This document shows positions 23,245 to 56,298 of a DNA stretch of 64,000 nucleotides, piece after piece. The notes under the pieces were generated by a model, which worked only from the letters and a program-made list of their open reading frames with translations, ran no database searches and was not told the origin of the DNA. The translations under genes were made by a program, and so were the position numbers. Origin of the DNA: a virus (lineage: Duplodnaviria; Caudoviricetes); the IMG/VR virus record IMGVR_UViG_3300020576_002081, positions 1 to 64,000 of that record; one strand, 5' to 3'. Each line of letters begins with the position of its first letter. Within the stretch, counting starts at the first letter, position 1.

Positions 23245-24719
23245 GGGCTGATGCTGTAAAAGCTTTAGTTAAATCTTATTTAACAGATAGTCAATATAAA
23301 CCAAGATTTGATTATGGTGATATAAGACCTAAAGGAACTAGATTAAAAACTGCTGGTGGAAAAGCTCCAGGACCAGAGCCTTTAAAAATAGCATTAACTC
23401 ACATTGAAGCTATATTTGAAAGGAAGAATAATGGAGATAAATTAACACCATTAGATTGCCACGATATTATGTGCCATTTAGCAGATGCTGTATTATCAGG
23501 TGGAATTAGACGTTCAGCAATGATAGCTTTATTTTCACATGACGACCATGAAATGATGGAATGTAAGTTTGGTAATTGGTGGGAACATTCACCTATGAGA
23601 GGAAGGGCTAATAATTCGTGTGTATTAGATAGGAATGAAATAACTGAAGATCAATTTAAAGAAATTTGGTCTAAAGTTGAAATGTCTGGTTCAGGTGAAC
23701 CTGGAGTTTACTGGACAAATAATAAATATTGGGGTACAAATCCGTGTTGTGAAATAGCACTTAGACCTTACCAATTCTGCAATCTTTGCGAGGTAAATGT
23801 AAGTGATATTCAATCCCAATCAGATTTAAATAAAAGAGTTGAAATAGCCTCTTTCTTTGGTACTTTACAAGCAGGCTTTACAGATTTCCATTATTTAAGA
23901 AGTATATGGAAAAAAACAACTGAAGAAGATGCCTTAATTGGTGTTGGAATGACTGGTATAGCTAGCGGTAAAGTGTTAGGTTTAAATTTAACAGAAGCTG
24001 CTGGTGTAGTAAAGTACGAAAATCAAAGAATAGCTAATATTATTGGTATTAATGTAGCTGCTAGAACAACAACTATTAAACCTTCGGGTACAACAAGTTG
24101 TGTTTTAGGAACAAGTAGTGGTATACACGCTTGGCACAATGATTATTATTTAAGACGTATTAGGGTTATGAAAAATGATCCTTTATATGCTTATATGTAT
24201 ATGTATCATGATAAAATGATTGAAGATGATAAACTTAAATCACATGATACAGCAATAATCACAATACCACAAGAAGCACCAGAAGGTTCAATATTAAGAA
24301 CTGAAAGTGCTATGGATTTATTAGAAAGAATTAATAAATTCAATTTAGAATGGGTTAAAGCAGGTCATAATAAAGGTGATAATACAAACAATGTAAGTGC
24401 TACTGTTAGTATTGATAAAAGTAGAATATATGTAGATCCACCACTGTCTAAAATGGACTATGAAAATAGATCTGATGAATGGCAAATGGTAGGTAGGTGG
24501 ATGTGGAATAACAGAAACTATTACAATGGTATTAGTGTACTACCATATGACAATGGTAGTTACATACAAGCACCTTTTGAAAATTGCACGAAAGAACAAT
24601 TCTTAGAATTGAGTAAAAATTTAAACGAAATTGATTTAACCAAAGTTATTGAAGATGATGATAATGTAAACTTTACAGAGAATCTAGCTTGTGGGCCTGA
24701 TGGATGTGAGGTTAAATAA
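23245..24719 (+). CDS. nrdJ: Class II ribonucleotide reductase, exon 2
   Basis: IRPKG.RLKT.GGKAPGP, GGIRRSA, TNPCCEI, FCNLCE, KPSGT, C-terminal ACGPDGCE. The true exon starts at 23245, 224 nt before the ORF-track ATG. Confidence 0.92.
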
Positions 24720-35341: not shown

Positions 35342-38300
35342 TTATTTTTGATAAGGGTCTTTATTCCAAAGTCTAGCAAAATCTGCTATTGGTTTAATTA
35401 CAGGAGTTACATTAATTAAACTGGCTAATTCTTTATTTTCACCTTTAAATCTACCTCTTTTAAATTTATCACCAGTAATTACTGATGGAGTATATTCTAT
35501 AACTTTAATTAAATCTTGAGCTGTCTTAAGCATTGGAACACTAAGTTTTGCAGGATCTGTTAACGCTTTAGGGTTATAAAAATACATTAAATCACCACTA
35601 ATTTGATTTAATTGACTCATTAAAAACTTATATGTTGGATCTTTACGTTTTTTATCATCATCAAATCCTATACCTGCTAATACCGTACCTAATAGTAAGG
35701 TTAATTCAATCATATTCTTACGCATATTATAAACATCAGTTTCATTAAAAGAATACTTTTCAATATTCTCAACATCATTCTGAAATTTAGCTATCATATA
35801 ATTAAATCCTTTAATATAAGTACGATATCTACCTTCAATCTCAACATCTAATCTTTCATCAAATCTTTTACCACCAAATCTAGATTCAATTGCTGCAGGT
35901 ATCCATTTTTTAAATTGAAAAGCGGCTCTAAATAAACTATATTGAGTTAAAGCAGCAGCATCTTTTTGAGAATATCTACCATGAATTAATTGATTAATTC
36001 TATGTATTTTATTAGTAGTTTTAAATATAAAATTATCATCTAACTCATAACCCATTAATTCAGAATTCCATTCACCACTTTCATTGAAAGCTTCCCACAT
36101 GCTTATGGTATTACCTTCTTTAGTAGTAACTTTATTATGTAATAACAAAGCAATCATAGTACTAGTTTGCATTTGTTTTTCACCCATTCTTTGAGGTAAA
36201 TACATTAAAGATTTAATCTTATCTTTATATTCATTAGAACCTACATTAATCTTTTCAAGATTTTCATAATCATCTAATTCCATTAAAGGATTAAATTTAG
36301 CTGCTAATTTATTAAGTTTAGAATCATTCACTAAATTCTCTTTAGAAAATATTTTAATAGCTTCTAAATATTCTTTAGTAGTAAAATGTCTACCTCCAAC
36401 AGCTTCAATTAAGTTACCTATATTACCTATAATAAAGTTTACAGACGCATTAAAAGGATTCAAACCAATTCTTAATAATGATGTATACTTAAGCATAAAA
36501 TCAATATGAGGAGCATATTTCTCTTCACGTTTCATCTCACCTAATACTTGCATTTTAATAAATGAATCAATCATTTCATTAAGTTTAGTATCTTCACCAT
36601 ATACTGATTTATTCTTATTAGTATTCTTAATAAATTCTTGTTGTTTAACTAACTCTTGAAACAATCTTGCTTTAGGTAAAACATCAGTCATTTCTTCATA
36701 TGAATTAGCAAAATAAGCATATTTAAGTAAAACACTACCTAAATCTTTAGATTTAATATCTTTACTTAATTTACCTAAGTATTTAACAGGTACACTATCC
36801 TTTTCAAGATTTTCATCAAATATTCTATCATTATCAGAATAATCATTAATTTCTAACATATGATTTGCACCATCTTTTAATTTAGATAACATAGTCTTAT
36901 CAGACTTCATTATATCCATCAAAGTTCTTTCAACTATATTAGGTATAAAATTAGAATTTTGTTTATATTGTTCAGGTAATTTATCATTAACCTCGGCAAT
37001 TATTCCTTTAAAGAAATTATAAAATTCTTTTAATTCTTTAGTATTTTGAATAGTTTCATAATCCTTATTATTATACTTATTATCTCTAGGTATAAATTCT
37101 TTAGTAGCAGAATTATACGTAGCTAATTTACTTCTTATTAAGAAACCATTAGGTTCTTTAAAAGAATCAGATATTTTTTTATAGAATTCGGTTGTATAAG
37201 GTTTAGTTAAAACTAAAGTACCTTTATGTTCTTGTAAGAAAATTTTATAAATATCTGTACCAGATAAACCTCTAGATTTTTGATAATCAGTTAACTTATT
37301 AACAGCATTATTAATTCTTTCAAAAGACTTCTTATTTTCAACTTCAATCTTATTCTGAGCCTTTTTAATTAATAACCCTATAGTTTTACCTAAATAGTTT
37401 TTAACATCAGCTAATGTACCAAAATTAGCTTCTGCAGCTGAAATATCAGTATCTAATTGATTAAATATACTTTCATCAAATTCTTTACCAGTTAATCCTT
37501 GCATTTCATCTAAAACAAACACTTTAGCGAATTGTAAAGTATCATTTAATAATATACCTACTCTATCTTTAACACCAATCATATTTTCAAACATGTGTAA
37601 AACTTTAACAGTTCTTTCAATCTTATCTACATTAGGTTTATTACCAGATTCTACAACTTGTTTAAGTTTATTAACATACTCTTCAATCTCATCTAAAGTT
37701 TCATTAGCAAGATTTAAAAGTACTTGTTTATTACCATTTTCACTAATTTCTTTTAAACTAGCTTCAATTTTAAGTATTTTTTCATTGGTTTTTAAGAATT
37801 CATCACTAGAAGGTTCTAATTTAGACAAATCTGATTTTAATTTACCTAATAATCCTTTATAATATACATATTGAGGTCTAATATCTTTAGCTATGATATT
37901 CTTATTATTAACACTAAACATCTTAATAAAAAGGTCTGTACTCTCAACTTCTTTAGTTGAAAGTATCATTTTAGCTAATTCTTTAGATAAATTATCAAGT
38001 TCAGACTGTATATTATAGTTTGGTTTAAATAACCTTACAAAAGCATCTAACATTCTTTTTATAGTTTCCCATAAAGCAAAACCAGGTTCATTTAACAATT
38101 CTTCAGGTGTATTAGCTTCAGCTATAACTTTAGCTACTAATTTACCTAAATATTCGTGTTTTAAGAGAGTTTCATCATTATTATATGTATCTATATAGGT
38201 TTGACCTAAAAAGCCTCTATAATCGACTTTATTCATTAAATTAAAGGCTCTTTTAACTAATGTATGATCTTCGCCCAAAGCTAATGTTAAATAATGAGCT

Positions 38301-39562
38301 AATTCTTCTGGAAAAGTATCAGTTTCAGCTAACTTTTGATTAATTTTAATAACTTTTTTAACAGAATCATAAAAACCATTAACTTCATTATTATTATCAT
38401 CAAGAACCTTTTCTATAAATTCAACCTTAATATTATTAACTTTTGCAAAATCTTGTAATAATGTAGACATTCTAGAAGTAATATCATTTTTTTTATCTAC
38501 CGTGGATTTTTTTGAAAATAAGATTTTATTAAGATATTCAGGTTTAATTTCTACTTCATTCCAAGTATTACCATATTCATCAGTAATTATATTAGGTAAA
38601 TAACCATTCTTTTTAAGAATATTAGTTACAGTATTTTCATAGAAATTAAAAATAGGTTTTAAAGCACCAAATCCTTCAGTTTCAACTCTTTCAAGTTCTT
38701 GTTTAAGTTGATTTATTTCTTGTTTAGAAGATTTAGACATAAATTCATAAGCAACTTCTTTACCTTCTTTTTCATTATAAACTTTTGTAGTAAATGCTAC
38801 ATTAGGATATTCTTTAGTTGATTCTTTTTTATGAACTTGATTATCTACTATTTTATAAGTTTTATTAAAAAATTCATCCGAAGCTATTTCTTTAAGTTTA
38901 TTTTCAAGTTCCTTAATCCTATCTTCTTTCTGTTTCTTAAACTCTTCTAAAGTACTATGACCTTCAACTTTACTGGCTGTATTACCTGTAGGAAATAATA
39001 CTTTCTCATATCCTTTCTTAGCACTATCTTGTATAATAGATTTAATAAAGAATGTTACCCAATTGTTGTTTTTGTTTAGAAGTTGTAGGAATTGATTAGA
39101 ATTAATATTCTTATTATAAATATCATTTTCTACTTTTTCAATTTCTTTAATTTTTCTATTTTCATTTTCAATAGAACCTTCTTCTCTTTCTATTCTTTCT
39201 TTTAAATAAGATAAGGCATATTCTTTATCAAATTTACCTTCTTTAGCTTCCTTACTATAAGGATTTTCTGCAATAGGTATAGTACCACCTCTAATTCCTT
39301 CAGATTCAACACTTGCTACATATCTACCTGCATTATTTGGTAAAATAATTTTATAATTATTATCTTTTATAGCTTGTATTGCTTTTTCAAAATTTACTAT
39401 ATTATCTTCATAATTTTTTATAGAAGAAAGATATACCTGTTTATTTGTAGGTACTTTATCAAACTTAGACAAAGTACTATTTTTTAAAGTAGGTATCACT
39501 TTACTTATAAATTCTTCTTTAGAAGAATATGTTGTTCCTTTATATATGTATTTACAAGCCAT
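35342..39562 (-). CDS. Large virion/ejection protein (1406 aa) with degenerate zincin-like motif
   Basis: Size and position next to the vRNAP; GFYD...EELAH zincin-like segment; only Cys is residue 3. Confidence 0.75.
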   Translation of the reverse strand: MACKYIYKGTTYSSKEEFISKVIPTLKNSTLSKFDKVPTNKQVYLSSIKNYEDNIVNFEKAIQAIKDNNYKIILPNNAGRYVASVESEGIRGGTIPIAENPYSKEAKEGKFDKEYALSYLKERIEREEGSIENENRKIKEIEKVENDIYNKNINSNQFLQLLNKNNNWVTFFIKSIIQDSAKKGYEKVLFPTGNTASKVEGHSTLEEFKKQKEDRIKELENKLKEIASDEFFNKTYKIVDNQVHKKESTKEYPNVAFTTKVYNEKEGKEVAYEFMSKSSKQEINQLKQELERVETEGFGALKPIFNFYENTVTNILKKNGYLPNIITDEYGNTWNEVEIKPEYLNKILFSKKSTVDKKNDITSRMSTLLQDFAKVNNIKVEFIEKVLDDNNNEVNGFYDSVKKVIKINQKLAETDTFPEELAHYLTLALGEDHTLVKRAFNLMNKVDYRGFLGQTYIDTYNNDETLLKHEYLGKLVAKVIAEANTPEELLNEPGFALWETIKRMLDAFVRLFKPNYNIQSELDNLSKELAKMILSTKEVESTDLFIKMFSVNNKNIIAKDIRPQYVYYKGLLGKLKSDLSKLEPSSDEFLKTNEKILKIEASLKEISENGNKQVLLNLANETLDEIEEYVNKLKQVVESGNKPNVDKIERTVKVLHMFENMIGVKDRVGILLNDTLQFAKVFVLDEMQGLTGKEFDESIFNQLDTDISAAEANFGTLADVKNYLGKTIGLLIKKAQNKIEVENKKSFERINNAVNKLTDYQKSRGLSGTDIYKIFLQEHKGTLVLTKPYTTEFYKKISDSFKEPNGFLIRSKLATYNSATKEFIPRDNKYNNKDYETIQNTKELKEFYNFFKGIIAEVNDKLPEQYKQNSNFIPNIVERTLMDIMKSDKTMLSKLKDGANHMLEINDYSDNDRIFDENLEKDSVPVKYLGKLSKDIKSKDLGSVLLKYAYFANSYEEMTDVLPKARLFQELVKQQEFIKNTNKNKSVYGEDTKLNEMIDSFIKMQVLGEMKREEKYAPHIDFMLKYTSLLRIGLNPFNASVNFIIGNIGNLIEAVGGRHFTTKEYLEAIKIFSKENLVNDSKLNKLAAKFNPLMELDDYENLEKINVGSNEYKDKIKSLMYLPQRMGEKQMQTSTMIALLLHNKVTTKEGNTISMWEAFNESGEWNSELMGYELDDNFIFKTTNKIHRINQLIHGRYSQKDAAALTQYSLFRAAFQFKKWIPAAIESRFGGKRFDERLDVEIEGRYRTYIKGFNYMIAKFQNDVENIEKYSFNETDVYNMRKNMIELTLLLGTVLAGIGFDDDKKRKDPTYKFLMSQLNQISGDLMYFYNPKALTDPAKLSVPMLKTAQDLIKVIEYTPSVITGDKFKRGRFKGENKELASLINVTPVIKPIADFARLWNKDPYQK

Positions 39563-40290
39563 TATTTACCAAATTTTATTTTACTACGTTTAATTGCACT
39601 TATAGCACCTTTTGTAACATTATATAGTTTACCTATTTGTTCAAAAGTAAGTTCTTTTTTATCTATTAAGTCTAAAATTTCTAATCTTTGTTGTTCTGTT
39701 AGTTTTTGTAACCTTGAAAATTGATTAGTTCTATTAATTAAATGTTTTTCGTTTTCAGAAATTACATAATTAGGTACATCATTCCAACTTCTACCAGATT
39801 TTATTTCAGATATTGTGGTAATACCTACATTATAAGTTTCTGATATTTTTCTTAAAGGTGTGTTATAAGCAATTAATTTTTTAATTTCTATTACATTTTT
39901 TAATGTAAGTTTAGAATTTCTTTGACCTGCTTTAAACAACTCTATTCTTTTTTTAGACATTTTTTCTTTTATAGAATCATCATATTCTAAAGAATCTCCT
40001 CCTGTTGTTAAATTCATACCCAAATCATTTACTTTTCTGAATGAATTAAATTGTATTATATATTTAGCCTCAAGAGTATTAAGTTCTTTTTTTGTAAAGT
40101 TTCCTATTTCTAAAATATCAAATTTATGATTTTCTATACCATACTTTAAAAAACTTCTATATAATAACAACTGATTTTTACAACATTGTAATTTTTTATA
40201 CCTACTAATTCTTTCATTTACATTTTTAGATTGACCAATGTAAATACTTCCTTTTGGATTTTCTATTTTATATATTCCTGATTTATTCAT
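39562..40290 (-). CDS. Free-standing GIY-YIG homing endonuclease with C-terminal HTH repeats
   Basis: SGIYKIENPKGSIYIGQS...R, E..YI, GMNLT.GG. True start is ATG 40290. Confidence 0.92.
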   Translation of the reverse strand: MNKSGIYKIENPKGSIYIGQSKNVNERISRYKKLQCCKNQLLLYRSFLKYGIENHKFDILEIGNFTKKELNTLEAKYIIQFNSFRKVNDLGMNLTTGGDSLEYDDSIKEKMSKKRIELFKAGQRNSKLTLKNVIEIKKLIAYNTPLRKISETYNVGITTISEIKSGRSWNDVPNYVISENEKHLINRTNQFSRLQKLTEQQRLEILDLIDKKELTFEQIGKLYNVTKGAISAIKRSKIKFGK

Positions 40291-40294
40291 ACTG

Positions 40295-40326
40295 CAAAGA
40301 TACAAAAAGTATATTAGAAATCCAAA
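40295..40326 (-). promoter_or_regulatory. Bacteroidota sigma70-type promoter of the GIY-YIG gene
   Basis: TTTG-N20-TATCTTTG, 4 nt before ATG; begins immediately after the upstream stop codon. Confidence 0.78.
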
Positions 40327-41937
40327 TTAATTACAATCTATTTTTAAATCCCCCGACTTTTGTAAGTCTTTGATAATCTGTTCAATATCTCCTAAATTTC
40401 TTCCTTTTTGGTAGAGGTCAGATTGTACTTCTAATATTCTACGAGTTTTAGGATTTCCTTTTAATAAATCAGATAAATATCCTGTTGTACTAATTACTTT
40501 AGATTTATCTACTTTAGCTACAGTAGCATCTATATCTGATTTCCAATCTTCAAATCCATAAGTAGCTCCCCTAGCATCAAATCTTTTCTTAAATTCATCT
40601 TTAGGTATAGTAATTACTTTGTCAAATTCAGACATTCTTTCTTTTAGAATATTAGTATTTGAAACAAATAATCTTTTACCTTCTTTTTTAGCTTGTACTT
40701 TTAATCTATCAAATAGATTAAGCATAAATTGATTATATTCTTTAGGTTTTCTCCCTTTATATTCTTGTCTTGTTTCAGAACCTCTATTTTTATCTATAAA
40801 AGCATTAACTTCATCTGCATAATCATCATCTAAAGTAATAAAATCATTACTTCCTTTTTGTTTTAAATAACTTTTTCCAATAGTAGGATGCCCAAATATT
40901 ACTTTATCATTTTTAGTTATAGGATTATATTGAGCAGTTTCACTATTTAAAAAATCATCTTCTTCTTTCCAACCAACTACTTTATTTTCTTTATCATCAC
41001 TTCTAAACCAGCCAATACCATTATCAGTAGCAAATTGAGCATGACCTTTAATAGAAGGAACTATTTGAGGAGTAGCTATTTCATTCTCTGTATAGTTAGT
41101 ACCTCCTGGAACTGTTAAATTGGAATAATGTGAACTATTTCTATCTATTATTTTAGGTAATAATTTCTTAGCAGTTTCATTAAACTCTCTTTTAGTTATC
41201 TTTTTATCATCTTTATAAAAATAAGTATGTTCTTCTCCATCAAATTCCAGTTCAGTTCTTTGTGTATATTTACTTCCTTCATATTCAAAATCTTCATAAC
41301 CACTATTTCCTCCATAATCTGCTAATTCAGCATTGTCTTTAAATCTATAATCTGTTTTATCTTTAGCAGTATTAATCTCAATAGTATAACTATAATTAGC
41401 TAATAAATCAGTAACAATTTCTTCTCTATTAGTTTTATTTAAACCTAATATTAATTCTTTTTGATATTTAGATATAGCAAGCTCAGTAAGAATTTTATTC
41501 AAATCCCATTTATTCTTTTCACCTTTATCAAATATTTGTTTAGCTTTATCAGATTGTAATATATCAATAGCTTTTATACCCTGATTAACATCATTTTCTT
41601 TTAAACTAAATAATTTTCTTTGATTAGGATTATTAGTATATTTAGGTAATAAATTCTTAACATTAACATACACATGTTGTCTATTGGTAGGAGTTTTAGT
41701 CCAACCAACAACTGGTGTACCGTATTCAGAATTAATAGCACCAACTAATCTCCTACCATCATTTATCTTACTTATATTATTAGAATGTTCAAATAATATT
41801 TGGTTCCACATATCAAATAACTTTGATTTATGTAATTTATCAAATATCTCATTATGAACATTGTTTAATTGTTCACGAACATTCTCATCATTAGTGATGT
41901 TCTTAATATAACTTTTTATTTCACACTTTTTACTCAT
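40327..41937 (-). CDS. Virion/ejection-module protein (536 aa) with inserted P-loop module
   Basis: GHPTIGKS Walker A-like motif; ILEVQSD motif near the C-terminus; only two Cys (residues 5 and 535). Confidence 0.75.
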   Translation of the reverse strand: MSKKCEIKSYIKNITNDENVREQLNNVHNEIFDKLHKSKLFDMWNQILFEHSNNISKINDGRRLVGAINSEYGTPVVGWTKTPTNRQHVYVNVKNLLPKYTNNPNQRKLFSLKENDVNQGIKAIDILQSDKAKQIFDKGEKNKWDLNKILTELAISKYQKELILGLNKTNREEIVTDLLANYSYTIEINTAKDKTDYRFKDNAELADYGGNSGYEDFEYEGSKYTQRTELEFDGEEHTYFYKDDKKITKREFNETAKKLLPKIIDRNSSHYSNLTVPGGTNYTENEIATPQIVPSIKGHAQFATDNGIGWFRSDDKENKVVGWKEEDDFLNSETAQYNPITKNDKVIFGHPTIGKSYLKQKGSNDFITLDDDYADEVNAFIDKNRGSETRQEYKGRKPKEYNQFMLNLFDRLKVQAKKEGKRLFVSNTNILKERMSEFDKVITIPKDEFKKRFDARGATYGFEDWKSDIDATVAKVDKSKVISTTGYLSDLLKGNPKTRRILEVQSDLYQKGRNLGDIEQIIKDLQKSGDLKIDCN

Positions 41938-41938
41938 T

Positions 41939-44900
41939 TTAACAATCTTCAGGGTTTTTAGTAGTTCCTTCTTCAGGATTTATATCTTCATTTATAAAAT
42001 TCTCATTTACTTCACCAAATAAATTATTAGCATAACCTTCATATTCTTCATTAGGAATATTCTCTTCAAGTACAGGTTTGTTTAATTTTTCAATATTCTC
42101 ATCTACTTGTTTATCATTATTATACTTTAAATAAGATTTCTCTATATTAATATAAGGATTTATTTCAAATAAATAGCCTGGTTTACCTAAAATTGTTGTT
42201 TTTTCATAAGAAAAATCATCAGTTTTAACATAAATTTCAGGTTTTCTATTAAATTTATCATAAACACTTATATATTTAGGAGTATTTAATACTCTACCAT
42301 CTTCATTATAAGTATACCAAATCATATCGTTTGCTCTACCTGCAGCTTTAACTAAAGCTTCGTTAGTAACAAGTTTATTAGGTAACGGTTCATTAGATTT
42401 AACATTAAACATTTCACCATCAAATTTCTTAGTAAAATCTTTACTATTATTTCTGATAATTAAATCTACTAATCTAGCTTCATCAACACCTGATAAAACA
42501 ACCATATCATCTTTTAGGTTAGATATAAGATTCTTTCTATAATCGTTATAACCTAAATCTTTAAGTATTTCAGGACTAATAAATTGTGAATAGCTATTTA
42601 AACCTCTAAAGAATCCTGTAGTTAAGAATGAATGTTTAATAAAATCAATAGCTAATGGTTTAGTATTTACATTTCTATATAAAGCTGTAAAAGCTTCAAT
42701 AATATTATTTTTAACTTGTAAATCTAATCTATTACCTTTAGATTGTATATACCAAATCTTATTTTGCTTATCTAATTCAATTTTAATATTTTGAATAAAT
42801 AAGTTATTTTTAATTTGTTCGTAAGTATTAGCTCCAATCTTAAGATCTTTATTATTAGTATCTTTAATATTCTTAATCATTACAGGAAACTTATTTAATA
42901 AATGATTGTAATTATCAGGAACATCTTTAAATACATCAGTCATATAATCAGTATAAGTTCTAATGAAGTTATTCATATATTGTCTTTCTTCAATAGATAC
43001 TTCATTTAAAGATTTCTTACTTTGATTCTTAATAACAGCATTCTTAATATTCATATAAGCATTTGTTGAATAAGGAAAGTAAGATTCAAACCAATCTAAA
43101 GCATACTCATGAGTAGACCATGTTTCTTTCAAACTAGGTACTGAGTCAATATTAAAACCTTTAACAATATTAGAACCGTTAATATTATCAAGAATATCTC
43201 TCTTAGCTATAATATCTTCAATATTAGGACCTACTTCTTTGTTTATAGCAAAGAATTTATTAATCTTAACAAGTTCTTTAGCTATAGATTCAATATTCTT
43301 AAATTGATTTAATACTCTAACTTGATAACTATAATATTCTAATAATTCTAAAGGATTAGCTTTTTTAAAACTTAATTTATTCTTACCTTCAACAGAATGA
43401 CCTTTTAATATTTCATCACCATCAATCCTGTAGGTTTCGATAATATTGAGCATATCTTTTTCATTAATATCAACATGTTCAGGTTTATTACTATTCATAA
43501 CTTTAATATAACCTTGATAAGTAGGATTATCTTTATCCTCTAACTTATCTAAAGAACTTTCAGCTAATTTAGTATAAGAATCAATTAAATCATCTATTTG
43601 TAAATAACCTTCATTAACATCTTTAACCTTATTCTTATTACCAGCTAATATTTTACTTAAGTGTTTAACAGCAGGTTGTGAAGTAAACATTAAAGCAGTT
43701 TTCATATTAACACCAGATCTAATCATAGTTGCTAATACATCTATAGTATTATTATTAATACCAAGTGGTTCAAGTAAAGGATTCTTAATATCATCTAATA
43801 TAGCAGCCATGATACTAGCTAATTCATCGGCAATAAGTTTCCCATTATCAGTGTATAAACCACTGAAGTTTGTTCTGTTAGAACCATTTATATTAACACT
43901 TCTAGTAATATCTAAACTACCATCTTCATTATAATCAGTACTATTTAAATCCATTAATACACCATATGAATGACCAGATACGTGTAAAGCAGCTTGTCCT
44001 TTCAAAGCAATACCAATGTGATTTCTTTCTTTAAAATCTCTTTGTGTTCTAGAGCTAAAGAAATTATATTCATCATAATTAGGAAAATAAGTCTTTTGAA
44101 AATTCTCAAGTTGAGTAAATCCAGATGGAGAAACTAATAAATGTAAGTTATTTATGCTAGTCAATAAAGTTAAATAGTTATCAACTATATTGTTATTTCT
44201 ACTAGCTCTAACATTTTGTTCTTTAACACTAAGCTCTTCAAAATCTTCATAACTTAATTTTTCTTTAGGACTAACGGTATATGAATATTGATAATATCTA
44301 CTTTGAGTAGACTTCTTATCAGTACCAGTATAATATTTATAAGGTATTAAATTATTATTTTCATCCTTAAAGAATTCTTTACCAAAGAAATAAACCTTAT
44401 CAAAGTCAAAGTCAGCTCCAAATTGAGTTGTTACTTCATAAGGTAATAATATAAAGTTACCCATAGTTGGAGGTAAGAATTTAACAACTTTAATAGGCAT
44501 CATTGAGTGTAAACCTTCAGTAGGAATACGATAAGCTATCAATTGTTTTAACTCATCTGGTATAGAATCTATATCAATAAGATTACCTTTTTTATCAAAG
44601 AATTCTTTAGTCCAAGCAGGCATAGCACATTCAGCATAAGATATCTTACCATCTTCTGGTTTAATCCATTTAAGATCTGTTTGTAAATCTAAAGCTTCTT
44701 GTGGAAGATTATCTTGTTGTTCAGCTAAGTTTTTATATTTAAAACCTAAAGCAGTAGCTTGTACTGCACTACCACCAACACTAAACTTTTGTTTAATAAC
44801 ATTATTAGTAAATATACTACTAATCATATTTTCAACTTGTGTAGCAATATTACCAGAGTCTAAAGCATATTCAAAATTACCGTTAACTATATTTAATATC

Positions 44901-47900
44901 TCTTCAACATTAATTGTAGCTCCACGTTTAGTAACCATTTCTTTAATAAAATGAGCAAAATTAATGTTAGATTTAACATCCATTTTATCTTTAAGTTCTT
45001 TAAGAGAATCAGCTAAATTCTCAGCTTCCATATTAAGAATGTTACTTATTATAACATCACCTTTAATATCATTATATAATTTAGATTTATCTATTGAACC
45101 TAAAATTAACATTTTAAGTTGCCTCATAGAATCATTACCTTCATCCATATGATCTGGATTATCTACTTGTACACCGAAGTTATCAGTACTTAAATCTAAT
45201 TTAAGGTACTCTACATCATCACTAATCGTATTTCTAAAGCCTATAGCAGCTTTAAATGATGATTCATGAGCAATCATATCAACACCATCAGTAAGCATTT
45301 GTTCACGCTTCTTAGCAAGTAAAGGATTTAAATCACAATATCCTTTAAATAAAGGTAACATTGCACATTTAACCTGTTCAAACTTTTGTTTTTCAAATTT
45401 AGGATCAAATCTGTTACCAAAGTAATATGGTTTAATACCACCTAATAAACGATGTAATGATTCTTTAATATTACCTTTAGAACCATTTTCAATTATATCA
45501 AAAGCTTCTTGCATTTCAGAAGTCCACGTACCTCTTGCAACATGTATTCTTTTATAGAATTCAGGTGATATATATACTTGAGCATCAGTAACATTTATAC
45601 CTTCTGAATACTTACCAGCAATTTCTTCTATCTCAGCATCAGTAAAACCTTGAGATTTTAAAGTATCAACAATAGAATTATAACTTTCAGAAGCTACTTC
45701 AACGTCTTTAACAACAACAGTTTTAATAATTTTATTTATAAAATTACCAAATACAGTCATTGCTTGACTTTGATAAGTACGCTTTTGTAAATCTTTAGGT
45801 TTATATTGAGCAAAATCACCATTAAATATATTACTAAATTCAATATTGTGCAATAAAGTATTAAGGCTAAAATTAGCTATAAGATGTTTTATTTGTCTAT
45901 CTTGAACCTCTTCAGAATTTTCAACTTGCTCTTGTATACCATCAACAAATTTAGTTTCAGAAGTTAATTGTAAAGATTTATTTTTATATAAACCATTAGG
46001 TAATCTTTCAATTAAACCTTTTCTTTCAAATTCTTTAACAGATTCTTTATAATCTTTATTAAGTTCAGCTTCTAATAATTTCATTATACTTTGTCTAGTA
46101 TCAAGATTATCAAAAGCTTTAATTATATCATTTTTATTAGCTGAAGATTCAAATATTTCTTTAGTCATAGCTAATACCTTATTATTAAACCCTAAAGAAA
46201 AATAATTAAACTTGTAAGCTTGACCATCAAATAAAGTAGGTATAACATCCCAATCAAGTTTATCTTCAAGTATCATATTAGATAACTTTTTAAAACTAGA
46301 TTTAGACATATGATAATGTTCTTCTAATTCATTTAAATTATATTTACCTTCACCTTTATTAGCTATAATATCATTTTTAACATTATTAGCTTTAGCTATT
46401 CTAATAGCTTCAGATAATACAACATTATAGTATTTATTAAAGATAGGTGATTTCCTTAAATCTAAGTCAGAACCATCAACAGGATCTATAGCCACATCAT
46501 ATCTACTAGCATCAATTATTACACACATTGTTTTATCAGATGGTGTAATATATATGTATTTGCTAACAGGCATTGTAGTTTGTTTTTGACTATTAACAGC
46601 GGTATTTTGGAATAAAGCTACTTCAGTATTCAAATAATCTTTAGGTGTTAATGAAGTAAATCCAACACCTTCTCTAGAACCTCTTTCATCTTTAAAACTA
46701 TCCATATAACTAACTTTAAAAGACTCTCTATATTCTTTATTATCAAGAGCTTCTAATAAATTAGATTTGTAGTAAAAATCATCTTTTTGTAAGTCTGCTT
46801 TCCAAAGTTTAAACTTATCTCTATTTTTAATTTTAGCAACAGTCTTACTAATAAACGATGGTAATTGTATTGTATAAATATTCTTATTCTCACCATTAAT
46901 AAACGATGAGGTATATTTTTCCATTAAGTTATCTACTTCATAAGCTACTAATTGTGATAAAGCTTTACGACCTTCTTTCTCTTCATTAATAGGAAAATCA
47001 GAAGCATACCATTTCATTAATGTAGTTACTTGATTCTTCCAAACAGATATGTCTGAAGATAATATCTTTTTAAGTACTTCAGGAGTATATTCTATACCTA
47101 CTTTATTTAATAAAGCATTAACAGATTCGTAAGATATGAGCTTACTAAATAATTTATCCCAAGCTTGTAATACATCTTTAGCTTTAGAAGCATCAATAAC
47201 CCTATTACCATCTTTATCATAATAACCTACAACATCTTTAGTAGGGTCTGCAACATTAATTTCAAACTGATTAAATATTTCACGACCTAAACTACTTCTA
47301 TTAGCATCAATTATCTTATAACTATAATTACCATTTTCATTATCAAACTTAATAAGTGTATAAGCTAATTGTTGTTTACTAAAGTTAGTTTTAAAATCAT
47401 TAACTAATAAATCAAATTGCTCTTGTGACATTTCAGAAGGTTTATTAGATAACTTATCTATAATTTGATTTAAGACAGGTCTGTTTATAGCAAGCTCCTT
47501 AAGAACATTCAATTGTTCAGACAATTCATATTTATCAATAAGATTACGTTCTATGTAATAATATAAATCTGAAAATTCATGGTATTGAGTAACACCCAAA
47601 TTATCTTTAACAACATTACCATCTTTAATAATAGGTATTGATGATAAGAATAATTTAAGTCTTGTACTAGCAGAACTTAAACCACTAATACTAGTCCATT
47701 CACCTAAACCTTTAACAGTTTTAGATTCTAAACTATAAGTTTCAATATCTTCAACAGATTCTTGAGTTAAGTCTGTTTTAAATTCTAAAACACCTTCCTC
47801 TTGAACTTCAATCTCCTCTTTAATAGTATTATAACCTAAAACTAATTTAGATTTTATATTTCTATATTCAAGATATTTCTTAACTTCATTCCATATATCA

Positions 47901-50900
47901 GGAAAGTTAACAATAATTCTAGCACATTCTTTTTCATCAGCTTCTGAAAGTTTACCAGAAACTAATTCTTTTTTGTAAGAATCTTGTATATTTTTAAGAA
48001 TAGTAAAAGAATCTACCTTTTGTTCATTAAAAATAGCTTGTTGATATTCAGCCAGAAATTTGTTCCCTATTGATTTAACAATCTTAACCTTAGTACTAAC
48101 ACCTAATTTACTATTAAGTGCTTTAGAATAAGCGTATTCGTTAAATAAAGACCTATTTACAACACTATTAGACTTACTATTTAAAGTAGCTAATCTACCA
48201 GCATTAATATTTGAAAATAAATCATCTATGGTTGTGGTATCATTTGATTTAAATATTCTATAAAAGTTGAATATTTTATTAAAAAAATCTTTAATCTTGT
48301 TTCCAAGTTTAACCCAAAAGTTACTATCATTTCTATCATAAGCGTATTTTGCAAAATCATCAGCTAACTTCTCTTCATAATAAAGATAAAGAAGTTGCTC
48401 ACTACTATATTTATTTTTTAAACTTTGTTTTAAGTTATTAATTTCTAATTCAGTTGGTTGAGGATATTTAGAAACAGCTTCATTAATTATATCTTGACGT
48501 TGTTTAATAGTCAATAGATTTCTAAACACACCATGAAAAGCTTCGTGATATGCAGTTTTCATACCTGCTCCCTCGAATAGGTATATAGTACTATCTCTAA
48601 ATAAACCAAAAGAATCAATCATTACATCTTTTAATTGATATATACTATCAACATCTGATAATTTTAATTGAGGTAATCTACTAGATAACCACTTTTGAAA
48701 TTTAACTTTATTTAATAAAGTGTTATCATGATTGATAGATAAAGCATTATCATCATTAATAGGAGTGTCTAAATCAATAGATTTTAATTTATCTTTAACC
48801 TTACTGTTTAAATCAGTATCATTAATAGATGGTTGTAATTGATCTAACTCTATATTATCTTGGGCAGAAGCTTCATTTAATTTTTTAGATATTGATTGAG
48901 TATATTCTATATAAGGTTGGACAAAGTATTCCCCTTCAAATGTAGTAACATTTGTTAATAAGGATTTACGATTTTTCATATCTTCTTGGAAAGAAGGTTT
49001 GTTAATATCGTTTATTGAAATATTTTGTTTAACACCTTTCAATCCTTCTAAGAAAGATTTATTTTTAAACTTATTGTTTTGAAATTCATCAAGTGTTACT
49101 AAACCATTAGCATTCCAAAGTTTAATTACACCACCTTCTTTTTTAATTGTAATAGGTACTCCTCTTTTAAATTCAGTACTATATACATAAGGTTGTAATC
49201 TTCTTATTATATCATTAGGTTCATTATCATTATTTGATGTAGATAAAACTTCACTTATCTTATCTAAAGTTTCTTTATTTAAAACATTAGGATAAACAGG
49301 TATTGGACTCCAATCACCATTTAAATCTTTTACTAACTGAAATACTCTACCTTTTTTAGAATCAAACTTATTTAACTTAGCTAATCTTAAGTTAATAGTA
49401 TTAATAGTTCCTTCATCTAAATCAGTATTATCAGGTAATGTTAATTTACCTAATGAATTAGAATAAACAAATACTAATTGATTTTCAATCTTATCTTTAG
49501 GTCTAGCAGTTTCTAATACATCAAATACAGGATCTATTCTACCTTGTTTATCTAATTTAGTATATAGATTACCAGTACCTTTATCAAGTACTTTTTCTAC
49601 AACTTCTTTATTAGAATTAAGTTCTTTTATAATATATTTTCTATAAGTTATTAAACCATCTCTAAGTCTTTTAGATAAATCAGGATCAGATGATTTAGTA
49701 GATATTTCATGAGGTTGTTGAACAAATCCTAATAAATCATTGTCTTTATAAATACCAATATGTTTACCATCATAATCTTTAAGTCCTTCATATAAAGAAG
49801 AAATCTCAGGAGATACTTCTACGAATTTAAAATTAATAGTATCACCAATTTTAATATCATTTATACTCTTAATATTAATATTAGAAGTATTATCTAATTT
49901 AGGAAAACCTTCTTGACGTTTAAACTTAAAGAAATCATTGTCAAAATAATGCTCAAATAAGTGCATCATAGCAACATTATTCTTTCTATTTATACCTTTA
50001 GATTCAACTTGATTATCGGTAATAGGATGTTTTTGACTTACTTCATCATCAATAACTAATTGATTATTTTCTGATACAACGTCTTGTTCATGTTCATTAT
50101 CAACATTAATATCAGATTGTTGTATGTTATTATTTTCTAAAGTTGCTAATTCTGCATCGTATTTAGCATTGATTTTATCATACTGTCTTGATTTACCAAT
50201 TTGACTATCAAATTTTTGTTTTTGTTGTTCTAGATAAGTATCTGCATCTTCTTTGTTATTAAACACTCTTGTTCTTAATATAGGAGCTTTAGATTGTTTA
50301 CCATCTTTCATTTCCCCATACTCAAGAACTCTGTCTATTATAGTATAACCTTCCCCTTCATTTTCTGCAATATTTGCGTCAAAATTATCAGCAGTTTGAA
50401 CATCTTGAACAATTACGAGCATTCCGTCATTATACTCTTGACCAACTTTAAAGGAATTAGGATTGTCTTTGTTTATAGGTGTTCCTTTAGTAGATTTTTT
50501 TACAGATTCTTTTTCTCTCTCCGTAAAAGATTTTAACTCTTCTTGTCTTCTTCTTTCTATATCAGCTTTTTTACCTTCCACATCTTTCAATGCACTACTA
50601 GACTCCTCTTCACTTTCTTTTAAACTACCTTCGCCATAAAATGATTTATTGTCATAAATAACATAGAATGGAGATACTTTTTCGTTAGCAATAATATGAT
50701 TAACAATTTTAACCCCTTTTACTTCTGGATTTGATTTCTGAAAATCATTAAACAGGGAGATAATAGCAGGGTTTTCATTTGCTCTTTCAGTTCCATTATA
50801 TTCTTTTGCAGGGTCATTCCCAATATAAGAACCGCTGTCTGGCTTATTGAACTTGTATCCTTTAGATTTTAATTCTTCATAAATTTCTTTCTCTGTTTTG

Positions 50901-53900
50901 TTAGTATCAATTACAACAAAATCAGAATCTTTAACCTCTCCCTTAATTGGATTACCATATCTCTTTTGCAAGAATGGAGTTGTATCAGTAGATACTGCCA
51001 GCCCATCACCAAATTGACTTACTTGATTTTTGCCTCTTTGGAAATTACCAAAATCAAAATCTTTAACATCTACTTTTGTGTGGTGAAATACTGGCACTAC
51101 ATCTTTCAATGCACTACCAGATACTCCCGAAGTTTCTCCTAAAGCAGCTAATTCTGCATCATCAATTTGTTTTTCTAATTCAGGAGTTAATCTGTTAATT
51201 TCTTTTAGTGCATCTTTTGCTTGTTGTTTAGTAAATTCTCCTTTTTTTACTTTATCAATATATTCTGCATCATATTTAGCATTGATTTCAGAAATTCTTT
51301 GTTTTTTTAAATCTAATAATTGAGTTAATCCCTCTTTACTAGTATTAATTCCTTCTTTTTTAAGGATATTTATAGCTTTAGTAAAATCATTTATTGTTAT
51401 ATAATAACCATTACCCGATGGGTTTGGTTTAAAAATATTTTTTAATGATTGATATTTTTCAGGAAATGCTTCTGTTAATAAATCTATTAATGTTTTGAAT
51501 ATTTGTATTCTATTACCAGTTAAAGATTTTCCTTCCTTTCTATCTGTTATAGCACCTTCTTCATTATAAGATGTTAATTTTGTATCATTAGCATATCCAG
51601 AAAAGGCTTGCTCTGGTGTATTTTTAAATAAATCTAACTTTCTTCTTCTTTCTATATCAGCTTTTTTAGCTTCTATGCTTGTTTCAGTAGTAGCTGTAGA
51701 TTCTAATGCTTGTAGTTCTGCATCATATTTAGCATTGATTTCATTTAAGAAATTACCATTAACCTGATAATTAATTTCCCCATTTAATCTTGCTTGTAAA
51801 AAATTTCTTAAAGCACTAACTGAATTACCAATCGAATGTACATAACCTCTGCTAGCTAATGTTTGTTGTAATCTATCAACATTCCATCCTTTTTCACTAG
51901 CTTTATTTATAATTAATTCTATTTCATCAATTTCATCTTGAGTTAATTCTGTATTAGAACCTTCAGGATTATATTTAACAAAAGCATTAGCTCTTCTTCC
52001 TTCATATTTACTTAATTCCTCTTGTCTTCTTCTTTTTATATCAGCTTTTTTAGATTCTAAATTTTTATTTAATAATTCGCTAAATGTAGGTGGCGCAACT
52101 TCTTTATCTTGAAACTCTTTTAATTTAGCTTCGATATGTGTTTTATTATTAGCATAAAACTCTTGTGTTTCAGCATCATTAGTTACAGTACCATTTTTAA
52201 TAGCTTCAGCAAAAGTAGTTATAATTTTATCTAAATTTTTAGCTTTATCAATTAAACTCTTTCTTTGATTATCATTAACTAACGGATCATTTTTAAGTTT
52301 ATTATGTAAAGAATTAAATTCATCTATTGTCATGCTTTCTAAAGCAACATCAACATCTGATTTAACTTCATCTAAAACTTGTTTATCTTTTTGCTTTTTA
52401 ACAGCTTCTTTTTCAGCATTTTGAACGTCTTTAACAATCTTTTCAGACTTAATTTTTTGTTCAATAAACTCATTTAAAGCTTTAATTTGCTCTGATGTAT
52501 TTTGTAAAGAATTATACTTTTCTTTAGATTGTTCTAATAATTTATTTAAACCATCAATTTGTTTTTGATATTTAGCAACTTGTATTTGATTTTGAGGTAA
52601 ATCATTGAATATAACAGAATTATATTTACTTAACTCATTATTTAAATCTTGAATTTTTTCTTTATAAAATACTTGTTTAGATACTTCTTGAAATGAAGCA
52701 TTGAACATCTTATCAAGATATTCTTCATAACCTTCTCTACCTTCAAGTGCTTTAACAGAAGCAAATTGACTAACAACATTCATTGTATCATTATATAAAC
52801 CTAATAATTGTTTAGCTTTATTCTTCTGTTCAGTTTTATATTTATTCTCATCAAGGATATCAAGTTGATTAATTTTACTAGCTGTTAAACTAGCATTATC
52901 AATCTTATCATTAAGCAATTCTAAACCAACATCACCAAGTTTTAAAAATGGTATTGCAGCTCTTGTAAAGATTTTATTATCTAAATAATCATGTAAAACT
53001 TTATCATCATTTAATGCTGATAAGTCTTTTAATTTACTTTCTGTAATTTCATTAATGAAATCTTCAGTAGCTTCTTTAAGTTTAGTAGGGTTAATAGATG
53101 TTTGAACACCATTTTCATCCCTATCATATATTTCATTATCTCCACTAAATCCTTCAAAGTTATCTTTGATTAATTGTGAGATAGTACCAAAATTCTCATT
53201 ACGATATTCTTGATCTGCTTTTCTCTGTTTAAATGTACCTACAGCTCCACCAAATGAACCTAATACTAAATCCAACACAACTGATTTAAGACCCTCTGTT
53301 GTATTCATAGTAGTAAGAAATTCATTAGCCACACCTTTTATAAAACCTAAATCGGTCTTACCAGTTGCTTTAGCTACTTCATAATTTTCAATAGATGTTT
53401 GACCACCTCCCTCAACACCTTCTGGTAAAGCTGATCCAAATATTGATTTAGAATATTGTTTAAGAGCATCTTTTTTAATAACAGGATTCTCCATTAACTT
53501 ACCAGAAGCATCTTTAAATTCATCCAATATTGATTTATCAGCTTTAAATCTACCTAATAAATTCTTATTCATAATAGCATTAGGTAATACTAATAAAGCT
53601 ATGTTAGCATAAAAAGTTGCTTTACATGCTTCAGCAATTTGTTCAGGACTAGCTCCTTCAGCTTTAAGTCTATCTGCTACACCTTTAGCTTCAGCTAATG
53701 CTTCTACAGAACTATTTAAAAGCGTTAAGGTGCCTAATTCAATATCTTTAGATAACTCAACACCAACTCCTAATTTAGATATCTTAGAAGCCAAATTTAA
53801 GCCTTTTAAAGCAGCTCCTGGAAAAATCAGACCTAATAAATAACCAACACCATCAGCTCCTTCACTTGACCAAAACGATGTACTAGCTATATTGTCTAAT

Positions 53901-54356: not shown

Positions 54357-56213
54357 TTAGTCTTGTAAGTCTTTAAACGATGTGTTGTCTGATGCAATAT
54401 TGTATAAATCTGTTGAACCAACTTCAGTACTGTAATAAAGTTGATTTAAATATGTAAGCATACTAGCTTGAGTTCTAAATGATATAGGTTCTTTAATTTT
54501 AGAGTTTTTACCTGGAGTTAACAAATAACCTGATTTCTTTTCACCAGTATTAGGGTTTGTAATACCAAATGTTTCTAAAGTACCCATATTAGGTATTTCA
54601 GTTTTATCTATCATTTCAACATCTTTATTTGCTAAATCTGGAGTTCCTTTAATTAAACCAGTTTCCCAACTAGCTCCTTTTAATCCTATAGACGCTACTT
54701 TATTATGGAAACCATCATCAACTACAGCTCTTGGTCTAACCATAATTGGTTGAATAGTACCATCTTTTTTCTTAATATAACCATCTCTATTCATATTACC
54801 TTTAGGAGTATGTCTAAAGTTATTTAAAACAACTTCATCACCTTCTTTTAATACAGGTTTTTCAGCTAATGGTTGATCTGGTTGTTCAACATCCATTAAA
54901 TCATAATTATTCCAATTTCTCTTAAGTTTTTCACTTTCAACTTTAGATATTGGTGCAGACATTTGTTCATCCGCAATTCTAGTTTTACTGAACGCATTAT
55001 ATTTATTTATAATTTCATCAAAGTTTTTATGATTAACTTCTTTATTATAACCAATAGATTTAGCTATTTCTCCAACTACTTTACCTAATTGCTTAGCTTT
55101 ATCAGTAGCGTCTTTATAACCAACTATTGTTGAAACTCTTCTACCATTAACATCTACTACATCATAAATAGGTTCTTTCTCAGAAACATTTTTCCAATCA
55201 ACATTTAATTTAGTTGAACCATCTGAATTTTTAGTTTCAGATAATATACCTGAATCTTTCAATTCATGAAAATCTTTATTATCAGCAGTTAAATCTAATG
55301 TTTGACTTTCTAAAGGACTACCATATAAAGAATTCTTTTGATTTTCTTCATCATGTAATGTTTTCCAAGCACGATTAACTTCTTCTGAATAACCTTTTTT
55401 ACCTTTACTAAATATTTGTTCAGATGCAGAACTATACAATAAATTAACAGCTGCTTCATAAATATCTTTTTGACTAGCTTTAGGATAGTCAAATTTAACT
55501 TTTTCAATAAAGTCTTGTCCTTCAGGACTATCTAAGAATCCATCAGCTTTTTGGTAAGCTTCTTTTAAAACTTTATTACTGCTAATTGTTTCAACACCAT
55601 TTTTATAACCTCTAGTTATACCATCTTTACCAACAATAACATTATCAATATCTGAACCATCAGCAGCAATCTTACCCATTAATTTTTTAGCAGCTTCAGC
55701 ATGATTAGCAGCAGACTTAATACCTGTAGACCTATAAGGTGTAAATTCACCATCTTTATAAGATGAATTAAATTTAGATATATTATCATTCCAATAACCA
55801 TATTTATTTTCAGAAGATAACTTTCTTAAATTTTTCAAATCATCATTATAATAAGCATATGAAGTTTCAAGTTCATTTCTTAAAGGATCATTTCTATAAG
55901 TTTTAATTAGATTATCTAACTTTAATTTATTAGAATAATCTGTTGGATTCTTAAGCCAGTTTTGAGCTAATTCATCTAATTGAGAATTATATTGATCTAA
56001 TAATTCTTTCTTTTTAAAATTATGTTTATCAATAGCATTAACTTTAAGAATCTCATCTTTAGCTGATGATATATCAGAACCTGCTTGTTTATATTTATCA
56101 GAGTAATCTTTAGCTAAATTAGTTAAAGCCTCTAATGGTTTACCCACGTATTGTTCAGGTACGAATGTACTAACATATCTTTGTGGTTGGGGTTGATCGA
56201 AACGATTAGCCAT
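54357..56213 (-). CDS. Virion/ejection protein upstream of vRNAP
   Basis: Likely ATG at 56213 (MANRFDQP); synteny typical of crAss-like ejection genes. Confidence 0.65.
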   Translation of the reverse strand: MANRFDQPQPQRYVSTFVPEQYVGKPLEALTNLAKDYSDKYKQAGSDISSAKDEILKVNAIDKHNFKKKELLDQYNSQLDELAQNWLKNPTDYSNKLKLDNLIKTYRNDPLRNELETSYAYYNDDLKNLRKLSSENKYGYWNDNISKFNSSYKDGEFTPYRSTGIKSAANHAEAAKKLMGKIAADGSDIDNVIVGKDGITRGYKNGVETISSNKVLKEAYQKADGFLDSPEGQDFIEKVKFDYPKASQKDIYEAAVNLLYSSASEQIFSKGKKGYSEEVNRAWKTLHDEENQKNSLYGSPLESQTLDLTADNKDFHELKDSGILSETKNSDGSTKLNVDWKNVSEKEPIYDVVDVNGRRVSTIVGYKDATDKAKQLGKVVGEIAKSIGYNKEVNHKNFDEIINKYNAFSKTRIADEQMSAPISKVESEKLKRNWNNYDLMDVEQPDQPLAEKPVLKEGDEVVLNNFRHTPKGNMNRDGYIKKKDGTIQPIMVRPRAVVDDGFHNKVASIGLKGASWETGLIKGTPDLANKDVEMIDKTEIPNMGTLETFGITNPNTGEKKSGYLLTPGKNSKIKEPISFRTQASMLTYLNQLYYSTEVGSTDLYNIASDNTSFKDLQD

Positions 56214-56232
56214 AGTGTTTATTTTAAACAAA

Positions 56233-56272
56233 TAAAGCTTTTAACATTGCTGAAAAAAGCTTTACAAAGTTA
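56233..56272 (-). promoter_or_regulatory. -7-like element (TAACTTTG) followed by a 10-bp leader hairpin
   Basis: TAAAGCTTTT/AAAAGCTTTA perfect stem at 56233-56264; no matching -33 element found. Confidence 0.4.
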
Positions 56273-56298
56273 AGAATTATTTTGTTAAGTTGTATATA

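Follow-up and report, generated by a model that had tools for sequence, protein, structure and literature searches.

Cysteine-tipped cargo proteins of a crAss-like phage: a candidate head-to-tail linkage and a mobile endonuclease cassette

Introduction

Among the phages of the human gut, crassviruses are the most abundant. Here, a block of four genes in series is described, which is located on the minus strand of a 64,000-nucleotide (nt) stretch of viral DNA (hereafter the window; positions 1 to 64,000 of IMG/VR record IMGVR_UViG_3300020576_002081, a virus record of 84.9 kb with an estimated completeness of 93%). The genes encode proteins of 4138, 536, 242 and 1406 amino acids (aa), and the first, second and fourth protein carry cysteines (Cys) at or near those chain ends that face each other in gene order. 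The closest described systems are the corresponding blocks of two members of the Crassvirales, g067-g066-g065 of Cellulophaga phage phi14:2 and gp47-gp50-gp49 of Bacteroides phage crAss001, which consist of homologous proteins with the same arrangement of terminal Cys. For these homologs the presence in the virion has been documented (record annotation; PMC10172136). In crAss001, gp47, gp49 and gp50 represent unresolved capsid cargo (PMC10172136). Purified virions of the same phage contain disulfides between the tail hub and ring proteins, therefore disulfides do occur in crassvirus particles (PMC10172136). In contrast to phi14:2 and crAss001, the window fuses the g067/gp47-like and the polymerase parts into one chain of 4138 aa, and its downstream protein has a putative polyvalent-type N-terminal region and is broken in two by an endonuclease cassette.

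A disulfide between two ejection proteins has been observed by cryo-electron microscopy in the pre-ejectosome of cyanopodophage A4, where gp27 and gp26 are joined by a bond between Cys1715, at the C-terminal helix of the former, and Cys5 of the latter (PMC12002296). Inside the A4 capsid, one ejection protein is linked through a Cys close to its C-terminus to Cys5 of the next one, and the same type of arrangement is found in the window, with a Cys at or near the C-terminus followed by a Cys at residues 3–5 of the next chain. The A4 disulfide differs in that it belongs to a phage of the T7-like group and represents one bond within a folded pentameric ring, which has not been described as a rule or as a chain. 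By analogy, it may serve as a direct precedent, although a single one.

The splitting of a gene by a free-standing endonuclease has been reported for the ribonucleotide reductase of phage Aeh1. The proteins NrdA-a and NrdA-b possess C- and N-terminal tails that are absent from unsplit homologs, and these tails, created by the insertion of mobE, are essential for the activity of the split enzyme (Crona et al.; PMC3045599). In contrast, the putative assembly tails in the window form a conserved Cys-tipped pair, which is found together with an endonuclease at multiple positions and in numerous phages, and they are suspected to be linked covalently. A further related case are the fractured genes (PMC2677866), which share the order half, endonuclease, half as well as the role of restoring a broken protein. 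Here, however, neither an intein fold nor splicing residues are present, and the rejoining, if any, would occur by docking and a disulfide and not by a peptide bond. A first-pass annotation of this DNA, which had proposed a chain of disulfides between the terminal Cys, stated that no description of this was known. In view of the published A4 disulfide (PMC12002296) and the endonuclease-derived tails of Aeh1 (PMC3045599) this statement was too strong.

Terminal Cysteines in the Cargo Block of the Window

The first gene of the block (41939–54355, minus strand) encodes a giant protein of 4138 aa if read from its ATG, or 4160 aa from an upstream TTG. The protein displays the DFDxD catalytic motif, with the sequence DFDFD at residue 3337 if the 4160-aa reading is used, and its polymerase region matches 113 crAss-like phage records in a tblastn search. 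The N-terminal part resembles g067 of phi14:2 (6e-49, blastp) and is crAss001 gp47-like, and the C-terminal half resembles gp50 of crAss001 (4e-44) and g066 of phi14:2 (2e-26, both blastp). The giant protein is therefore a fusion of two cargo proteins that occur separately in phi14:2 and crAss001. At the other end of the block, the C-terminal part of the 1406-aa protein (35342–39562, minus strand) is similar to crAss001 gp49 (8e-28, blastp) and also to g065 of phi14:2. By homology, the locus belongs to a crAss-like phage of the order Crassvirales and encodes its RNA-polymerase-associated cargo, and the three giant proteins are likely to be packaged in the virion and to be injected. No DNA nearly identical to the window was found in the phage collection searched.

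The polymerase protein contains seven Cys, located at residues 266, 2166, 2633, 3019, 3029 and 3265 and at the very C-terminus (…NPEDC-stop; codon at 41942–41944, minus strand). The 536-aa protein (40327–41937, minus strand) has only two, at residue 5 within the motif MSKKCEIKSYIKN (codon at 41923–41925, minus strand) and at residue 535 (codon at 40333–40335, minus strand), and the 1406-aa protein has a single one at residue 3 (codon at 39554–39556, minus strand). This results in two junctions with a Cys on each side, junction 1 between the polymerase and the 536-aa protein and junction 2 between the 536-aa and the 1406-aa protein. All four junction codons are TGT, and the outer ends of the series (MPDNNKPL… and …KDPYQK) are devoid of Cys.

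The junction-facing terminal positions comprise 18 of the 6080 residues and hold four of the ten Cys (hypergeometric p about 1e-8). With Cys making up 1.02% of the residues encoded in the window, all four zones would be hit with a probability of about 2e-6. Among the 61 open reading frames of the window, the polymerase and the 536-aa protein are the only ones with a Cys within the last three residues, and it is unlikely that this arrangement arose by chance. The codons and translations bear out the first-pass annotation in the placement of the four terminal Cys and in the Cys-free outer ends of the series. Its direct succession from the 536-aa to the 1406-aa protein has to be corrected, since the two genes are not adjacent and a GIY-YIG endonuclease gene (39562–40290, minus strand) lies between them. 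Overall, the Cys pattern and the terminal enrichment of that reading stand, and the endonuclease as well as the relation of the two proteins as split halves had been missed.

Of the remaining Cys, Cys2166 sits roughly at the meeting point of the two parts of the fused polymerase protein, and local alignments are indecisive on its origin as a relic of a junction. Four proteins of the window outside of the cargo block begin with Met-Cys (e.g., MCGQLGYS; 9894–11411, 13461–14741, 21342–21869 and 23469–24719, all on the plus strand), a start that is typical of N-terminal-nucleophile enzymes, among them glutamine amidotransferases. These proteins are unrelated to the junctions, but contribute to the background of N-terminal Cys. 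The proteins of 618 and 574 aa that are encoded immediately upstream of the polymerase gene (54357–58023, minus strand) contain no Cys and probably represent additional virion or cargo components that do not belong to the chain.

Conservation of the Junction Cysteines

The comparison with relatives is based on 63 viral contigs that were fetched via the 1406-aa protein and one that was fetched via a homolog (relatives are cited by L numbers in the following), with genes called by a single simple rule. These contigs are related to each other, so that the junction counts and the Fisher p treat kin as independent. Among adjacent genes on the same strand, a Cys within the last three residues of one protein and a Cys at residues 2–6 of the next one were found together 46 times, and the other cells of this table contain 19, 48 and 410 pairs (odds ratio 20.7; Fisher p 1e-24, which is not a true probability for related contigs). 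The 19 cases with only the C-terminal Cys comprise ten in which a GIY-YIG gene lies between the partners, one with a small DUF5856 gene at this place and eight unrelated genes on the other strand. Many of the cases with only the N-terminal Cys represent the far side of an endonuclease insertion, and in others the upstream Cys lies slightly deeper in the protein, at position −4 to −7.

For a count restricted to the cargo, the genes were defined by homology only and endonuclease genes were skipped, using the 64 contigs and the window. Here, a Cys within the last 10 residues of the upstream protein and at residues 2–6 of the downstream protein was scored. Both sides carry a Cys in all of the 50 cargo junctions (37 of 37 if only unique ones are counted), compared to 14 of 457 control junctions. 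An enrichment of terminal Cys in homologs, on which the first-pass annotation had made its proposal depend, is thereby found. The position of the Cys varies among the junctions (−1 to −9 and +3 to +5), as does the intergenic spacing. Within the chains Cys are strongly depleted: the cargo proteins contain 174 Cys in 232,198 residues, 114 of which are terminal, which corresponds to an internal density of 0.026% versus 1.11% in other genes, and 74 of the 105 cargo proteins lack an internal Cys altogether.

The rule is followed by named phages of three families. In phi14:2, whose cargo proteins are virion proteins by mass spectrometry according to the record, g067 has its only Cys at position 1797 of 1797, g066 has Cys at positions 3 and 2179 of 2180, and g065 at position 3. 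In crAss001, gp47 ends with …RCNS, gp50 has Cys at positions 5, 1334 and 2404 of 2412, and gp49 at position 5. The gene of gp47 is located on the strand opposite to that of gp50, therefore the rule belongs to the proteins and not to the DNA junction. Phage cr118_1 (Suoliviridae) encodes a fusion of 4946 aa with a Cys at −4, followed by a protein with its only Cys at residue 3, and in crAss002 (Intestiviridae) gp32 has a single Cys at −2, which faces an MSC… head of gp33 if the latter starts at Met33. As judged from these homologs, junction 1 of the window is of the type found across the order.

No published description of terminal Cys as a rule in crassvirus cargo was found. The structural paper on crAss001 does not mention the terminal Cys, and the word "cysteine" is absent from it (PMC10172136); likewise, the preprint on the phi14:2 RNA polymerase does not mention them, and the word "disulfide" is absent there.

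Two observations on individual relatives concern the surroundings of such junctions. In crAss002 (L076, MN917146; 10329–10430), a start at Met33 gives gp33 the N-terminus MSCTPSNPKLDK, a typical Cys head facing gp32 (…ELSFVCS-stop), and gp33 was probably annotated with a start that lies 32 codons too far upstream; the 170-nt gap contains a terminator-like hairpin. In L001, a 119-aa DUF5856 gene (7816–8175) separates the polymerase (…QIIKCL-stop) from the cargo piece that follows it (MSNTCINIHHP) and represents one more case of a small insertion at a junction of the Cys-Cys type.

The 536-aa and 1406-aa Proteins as Halves of One Protein

In a set of 237 homologs from the database, there are 146 that match the 536-aa as well as the 1406-aa protein within one chain, which typically has a length of 1800–2400 aa. 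On the basis of this homology, the two proteins are identified as halves of one protein of about 2000 aa. The break lies inside a strongly conserved domain without a name, between the motifs …RRILEVQSDxxQKGR and …NQFLQLLNKDNNWVTFF…. In 123 fused homologs not a single Cys is present in the 9,679 residues between the motifs that flank junction 2, and the split site is occupied by a different, Cys-free linker. The head motif (C-K-Y-I-Y-K-G-x-x-Y and variants) occurs 15 times at an N-terminus and never internally among the 237 homologs. Since the fused forms are free of Cys at this site and the head is never internal, the Cys pair exists only where the chain is broken. The terminal peptides to which the first-pass annotation had drawn attention are thus conserved modules confined to split forms, which would be compatible with a docking function.

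Relatives of the split protein carry the polyvalent modules MuF_C, ART-PolyVal and AAA_33/Zeta kinase. The 536-aa protein, the N-terminal half of this putatively polyvalent-type cargo protein, and the 1406-aa protein, its C-terminal half, have no match in Pfam, and a P-loop motif (GHPTIGKS) was seen by eye only. By this motif reading, the 536-aa protein contains a putative P-loop kinase-like insert (40498–40905, minus strand), and its relative P0016 matches AAA_33 and Zeta_toxin. For the split domain itself, the fused homolog P0054, which spans it, has no sequence match in the PDB, and neither P0054 nor P0129, a second such homolog, has a match in Pfam. An AlphaFold model of P0054 reached a predicted local distance difference test (pLDDT) score of 58, with values below 50 in the conserved core.

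A Mobile Endonuclease Cassette at Junction 2

What is new at this locus is that junction 2 is a cassette of 881 bp, which consists of a Cys tail, an endonuclease and a Cys head. The tail, which is the upstream arm of the cassette (40330–40389, minus strand), consists of 20 aa at the C-terminus of the 536-aa protein, DIEQIIKDLQKSGDLKIDCN, including Cys535, and the head, its downstream arm (39509–39562, minus strand), of 18 aa at the N-terminus of the 1406-aa protein, MACKYIYKGTTYSSKEEF, including Cys3. Between them lies the gene of an intact, free-standing homing endonuclease of 242 aa counted from its ATG, the stop of which overlaps the ATG of the 1406-aa gene (TAATG). The endonuclease consists of a GIY-YIG domain (PF01541, 5e-7) and a helix-turn-helix tail with matches to Sigma70_r4 and HTH_38, and it matches PHROG 314, homing endonuclease (1e-19). 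The whole cassette (39509–40389, minus strand) shares 86% identity with contig L046. In this comparison it is the single continuous block and corresponds exactly to tail, endonuclease and head, and all other matches are patches of 37–184 nt in conserved motifs of the host protein. The distribution of the endonuclease is patchy: unsplit relatives lack it, and the block that it forms with its arms is also present in L046, where the sequence outside of this block diverges.

Tails of the form …(helix)…SG-D/E-L-x-I/V-x-C-x-stop and heads of the form MAC-K-Y/H-I-Y-K-G-x-T-Y-x-S-K-E-E-F recur on proteins that are otherwise different in sequence. In an alignment of 24 tails the Cys is the sole invariant column, and in nine aligned heads M1, A2, C3, G9 and Y12 are invariant. 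The module occupies at least three different positions in a single conserved domain, namely after GWFRSDD (L006, L021 and L028), after EVQSDxxQKGR (the window, L001, L005, L046 and L053) and after NNWVTFFIKSIIQ (L057); heads retrieved from the database show the first two contexts and others. Relatives of the endonuclease in cargo genes are preceded by a Cys tail in seven of seven cases, and followed by a Cys head in the six cases in which the sequence extends into the next gene (L068 breaks off within the endonuclease). A GIY-YIG gene also comes after each of three more proteins with such a tail. This tail type was not found without an endonuclease, and one endonuclease-free junction with a cassette-like head exists in L072.

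In L070 (162–3065), two GIY-YIG genes flank a piece of 139 aa, which has a Cys head (MACKYKYNNKWY) as well as a Cys tail (…LGQLVIKCD). Therefore, the domain can be cut into several pieces, each with such ends.

Taken by sequence comparison, the two junctions of the window differ in origin: junction 2 is a secondary break in a conserved domain and consists of the endonuclease cassette. The tail and head of the cassette probably re-associate the two halves, as a non-splicing counterpart of a split intein. A broader proposal is that a GIY-YIG lineage travels together with Cys-tipped docking peptides and breaks an essential injected protein, which would be rejoined by docking and a disulfide, exploiting the head-to-tail thread rule of the order. 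Such a cassette, breaking the protein at different surface sites, would create a "disulfide-stapled fractured gene", related to the split intein in its role with a different chemistry. We regard this proposal as a serious possibility that still falls somewhat short of an even chance.

Proposed Linkage of the Cargo Chains

From the patterns described above, we infer that the separately encoded cargo chains are linked head-to-tail, most simply by an inter-chain disulfide formed in the particle, a reading that is on balance somewhat more likely than not. In this mechanism, split cargo would be marked by a Cys at or near the C-terminus of the upstream chain and at residues 3–5 of the downstream chain, and the two thiols would meet in the assembled particle, where a disulfide between the chains is the most likely outcome. 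The pieces, i.e., the RNA-polymerase fusion, followed by the 536-aa and then the 1406-aa protein, would act as one near-linear thread, which could be packed in a fixed proportion and be drawn through the tail piece after piece. In the reducing cytoplasm of the host the pieces would part again. The depletion of other Cys would prevent wrong cross-links, and at junction 2 the link would rejoin a protein that was broken by a selfish endonuclease.

For the natural 139-aa piece of L070, which was modeled as a single chain with AlphaFold, the head and tail are the better parts, with a moderate confidence (pLDDT 63–73). In the prediction the head forms a beta hairpin that leads into a helix and the tail a helix that leads into a short strand, which would be compatible with a small sheet with the two Cys at adjoining strand ends.

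Several points weigh against a disulfide-linked thread. The same model has a mean pLDDT of 52 and thus a low confidence, and the support for the thread consists of sequence pattern and conservation. The hosts are anaerobes and assembly takes place in a reducing cytoplasm, which leaves the timing and the route of thiol oxidation unexplained. In a search for a phage-encoded thiol oxidoreductase that covered the thioredoxin family only, the 84.9-kb genome gave no match, and the window contains no CxxC redox motif. The surroundings of the Cys at junction 1 are variable, therefore the specificity by which tail 1 would pair with head 1 and tail 2 with head 2 is unexplained. Since the contigs are related, the counted junctions are not independent events. 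Finally, in L053 (6968–14413), L062 (835–9021), L046 (217–9147) and L078 (4757–7146) the tail Cys is followed by an in-frame extension of 63–66 aa and by a protein of 594–783 aa that precedes the head-bearing piece; thus, the link would not always be strictly end-to-end. These extensions end with …GLVIPKN-stop, or with …GLVLPKIK-stop in L046. The head-bearing piece after the intervening protein is present in L053, L062 and L046, and L078 ends before it. The intervening "MYKNINVEAEHN" proteins start with MYKNI(N/K)VEAEHNELIL (MKQNINIEAEGSELIL in L046) and have a CxxC at residues 42–45. In L047 the same protein, with 719 aa, precedes the head-bearing piece, and no tail extension was seen there. 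Searches of Pfam and PHROG for a second mobile element among them gave only a borderline match to PG_binding_1 for one and a weak match to a PHROG of unknown function for another.

The terminal peptides might also dock non-covalently, with the Cys acting as contact residues or as joint ligands of a metal in a thiolate bridge or clasp. The tails of Aeh1 NrdA assemble a split protein in this non-covalent manner (PMC3045599), reducing or anaerobic conditions prevail during assembly and in the gut, and junction 2 has a tail and a head that represent conserved modules, predicted with moderate confidence as helix plus strand and hairpin plus helix, respectively. However, junction 1 conserves the Cys alone while its surroundings vary, which argues for thiol chemistry and not for a shaped interface, and the strong depletion of internal Cys would be expected if stray disulfides were hazardous. 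A metal clasp would have one Cys per side and thus two ligands, and the alignments show no conserved His, Cys, Asp or Glu as additional partners. Docking without a disulfide is therefore considered unlikely, yet worth keeping in mind. It is also conceivable that the terminal Cys bond elsewhere, in dimers of the same protein or with a component of the capsid, portal or tail, or that they sense the entry into the cytoplasm. Sequence alone cannot pair thiols, the disulfides of crAss001 virions connect structural proteins of the tail, and some of the tails extend beyond the Cys as described above. However, Cys are found only at ends that face another cargo chain and never at the two outer ends, they are paired exactly at the chain breaks and absent where the chains are fused, and the partner observed in A4 is the neighbouring ejection protein, which makes other partners quite improbable.

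A further possibility is that the Cys codons are a by-product of gene splitting at the level of the DNA, as targets of endonucleases, co-converted flanks or a duplicated target, and have no role in the protein. Homing endonucleases are found exactly at many junctions, and since flanks travel with the endonuclease, a part of the conservation of tails and heads could reflect co-conversion. On the contrary, 41 of the 50 junctions have no endonuclease, gp47 and gp50 of crAss001 both retain their Cys although encoded on opposite strands, the position of the Cys as well as the intergenic spacing vary, and a depletion of internal Cys over 232,198 residues is a property of proteins. A by-product of this kind is therefore very unlikely. 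Even less can be said for junction 2 as a split intein, i.e., a fractured gene whose halves are spliced in trans with Cys nucleophiles. The order of half, free-standing endonuclease and half is that of fractured genes (PMC2677866), and a Cys is present at each edge. However, the tail has only 20 aa with the Cys at its end (Cys-Asn) and not at its start, and the head Cys is already residue 3 after Met-Ala, so that a C-terminal intein part would not fit in front of it. Splicing requires an Asn directly before the head Cys, but Ala, Ser or Pro is found at this position, and no Hint or intein match from Pfam was found in either protein. The defining features of a split intein, an N-terminal part that begins with Cys or Ser, an (H)N end and a Hint fold, are lacking, and this reading was rejected as extremely improbable.

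Conclusion

The packing and injection of an RNA-polymerase cargo of about 700 kDa per set is an open question in crassviruses, and this cargo is unresolved in the crAss001 structure. If a head-to-tail disulfide link between the cargo chains holds true, the short Cys-tipped peptide pairs could serve as tags for the joining of proteins. At junction 2, a selfish endonuclease appears to bring along a repair at the protein level for the gene it breaks, and such a cassette, if true, would represent a third solution beside introns and inteins. For the order as a whole, a conserved end-to-end thiol link, if true, would provide a mechanism for a fixed stoichiometry, an ordered ejection and the release in the cytoplasm, and it would explain why the giant cargo genes are freely fused and split between the lineages of crassviruses.

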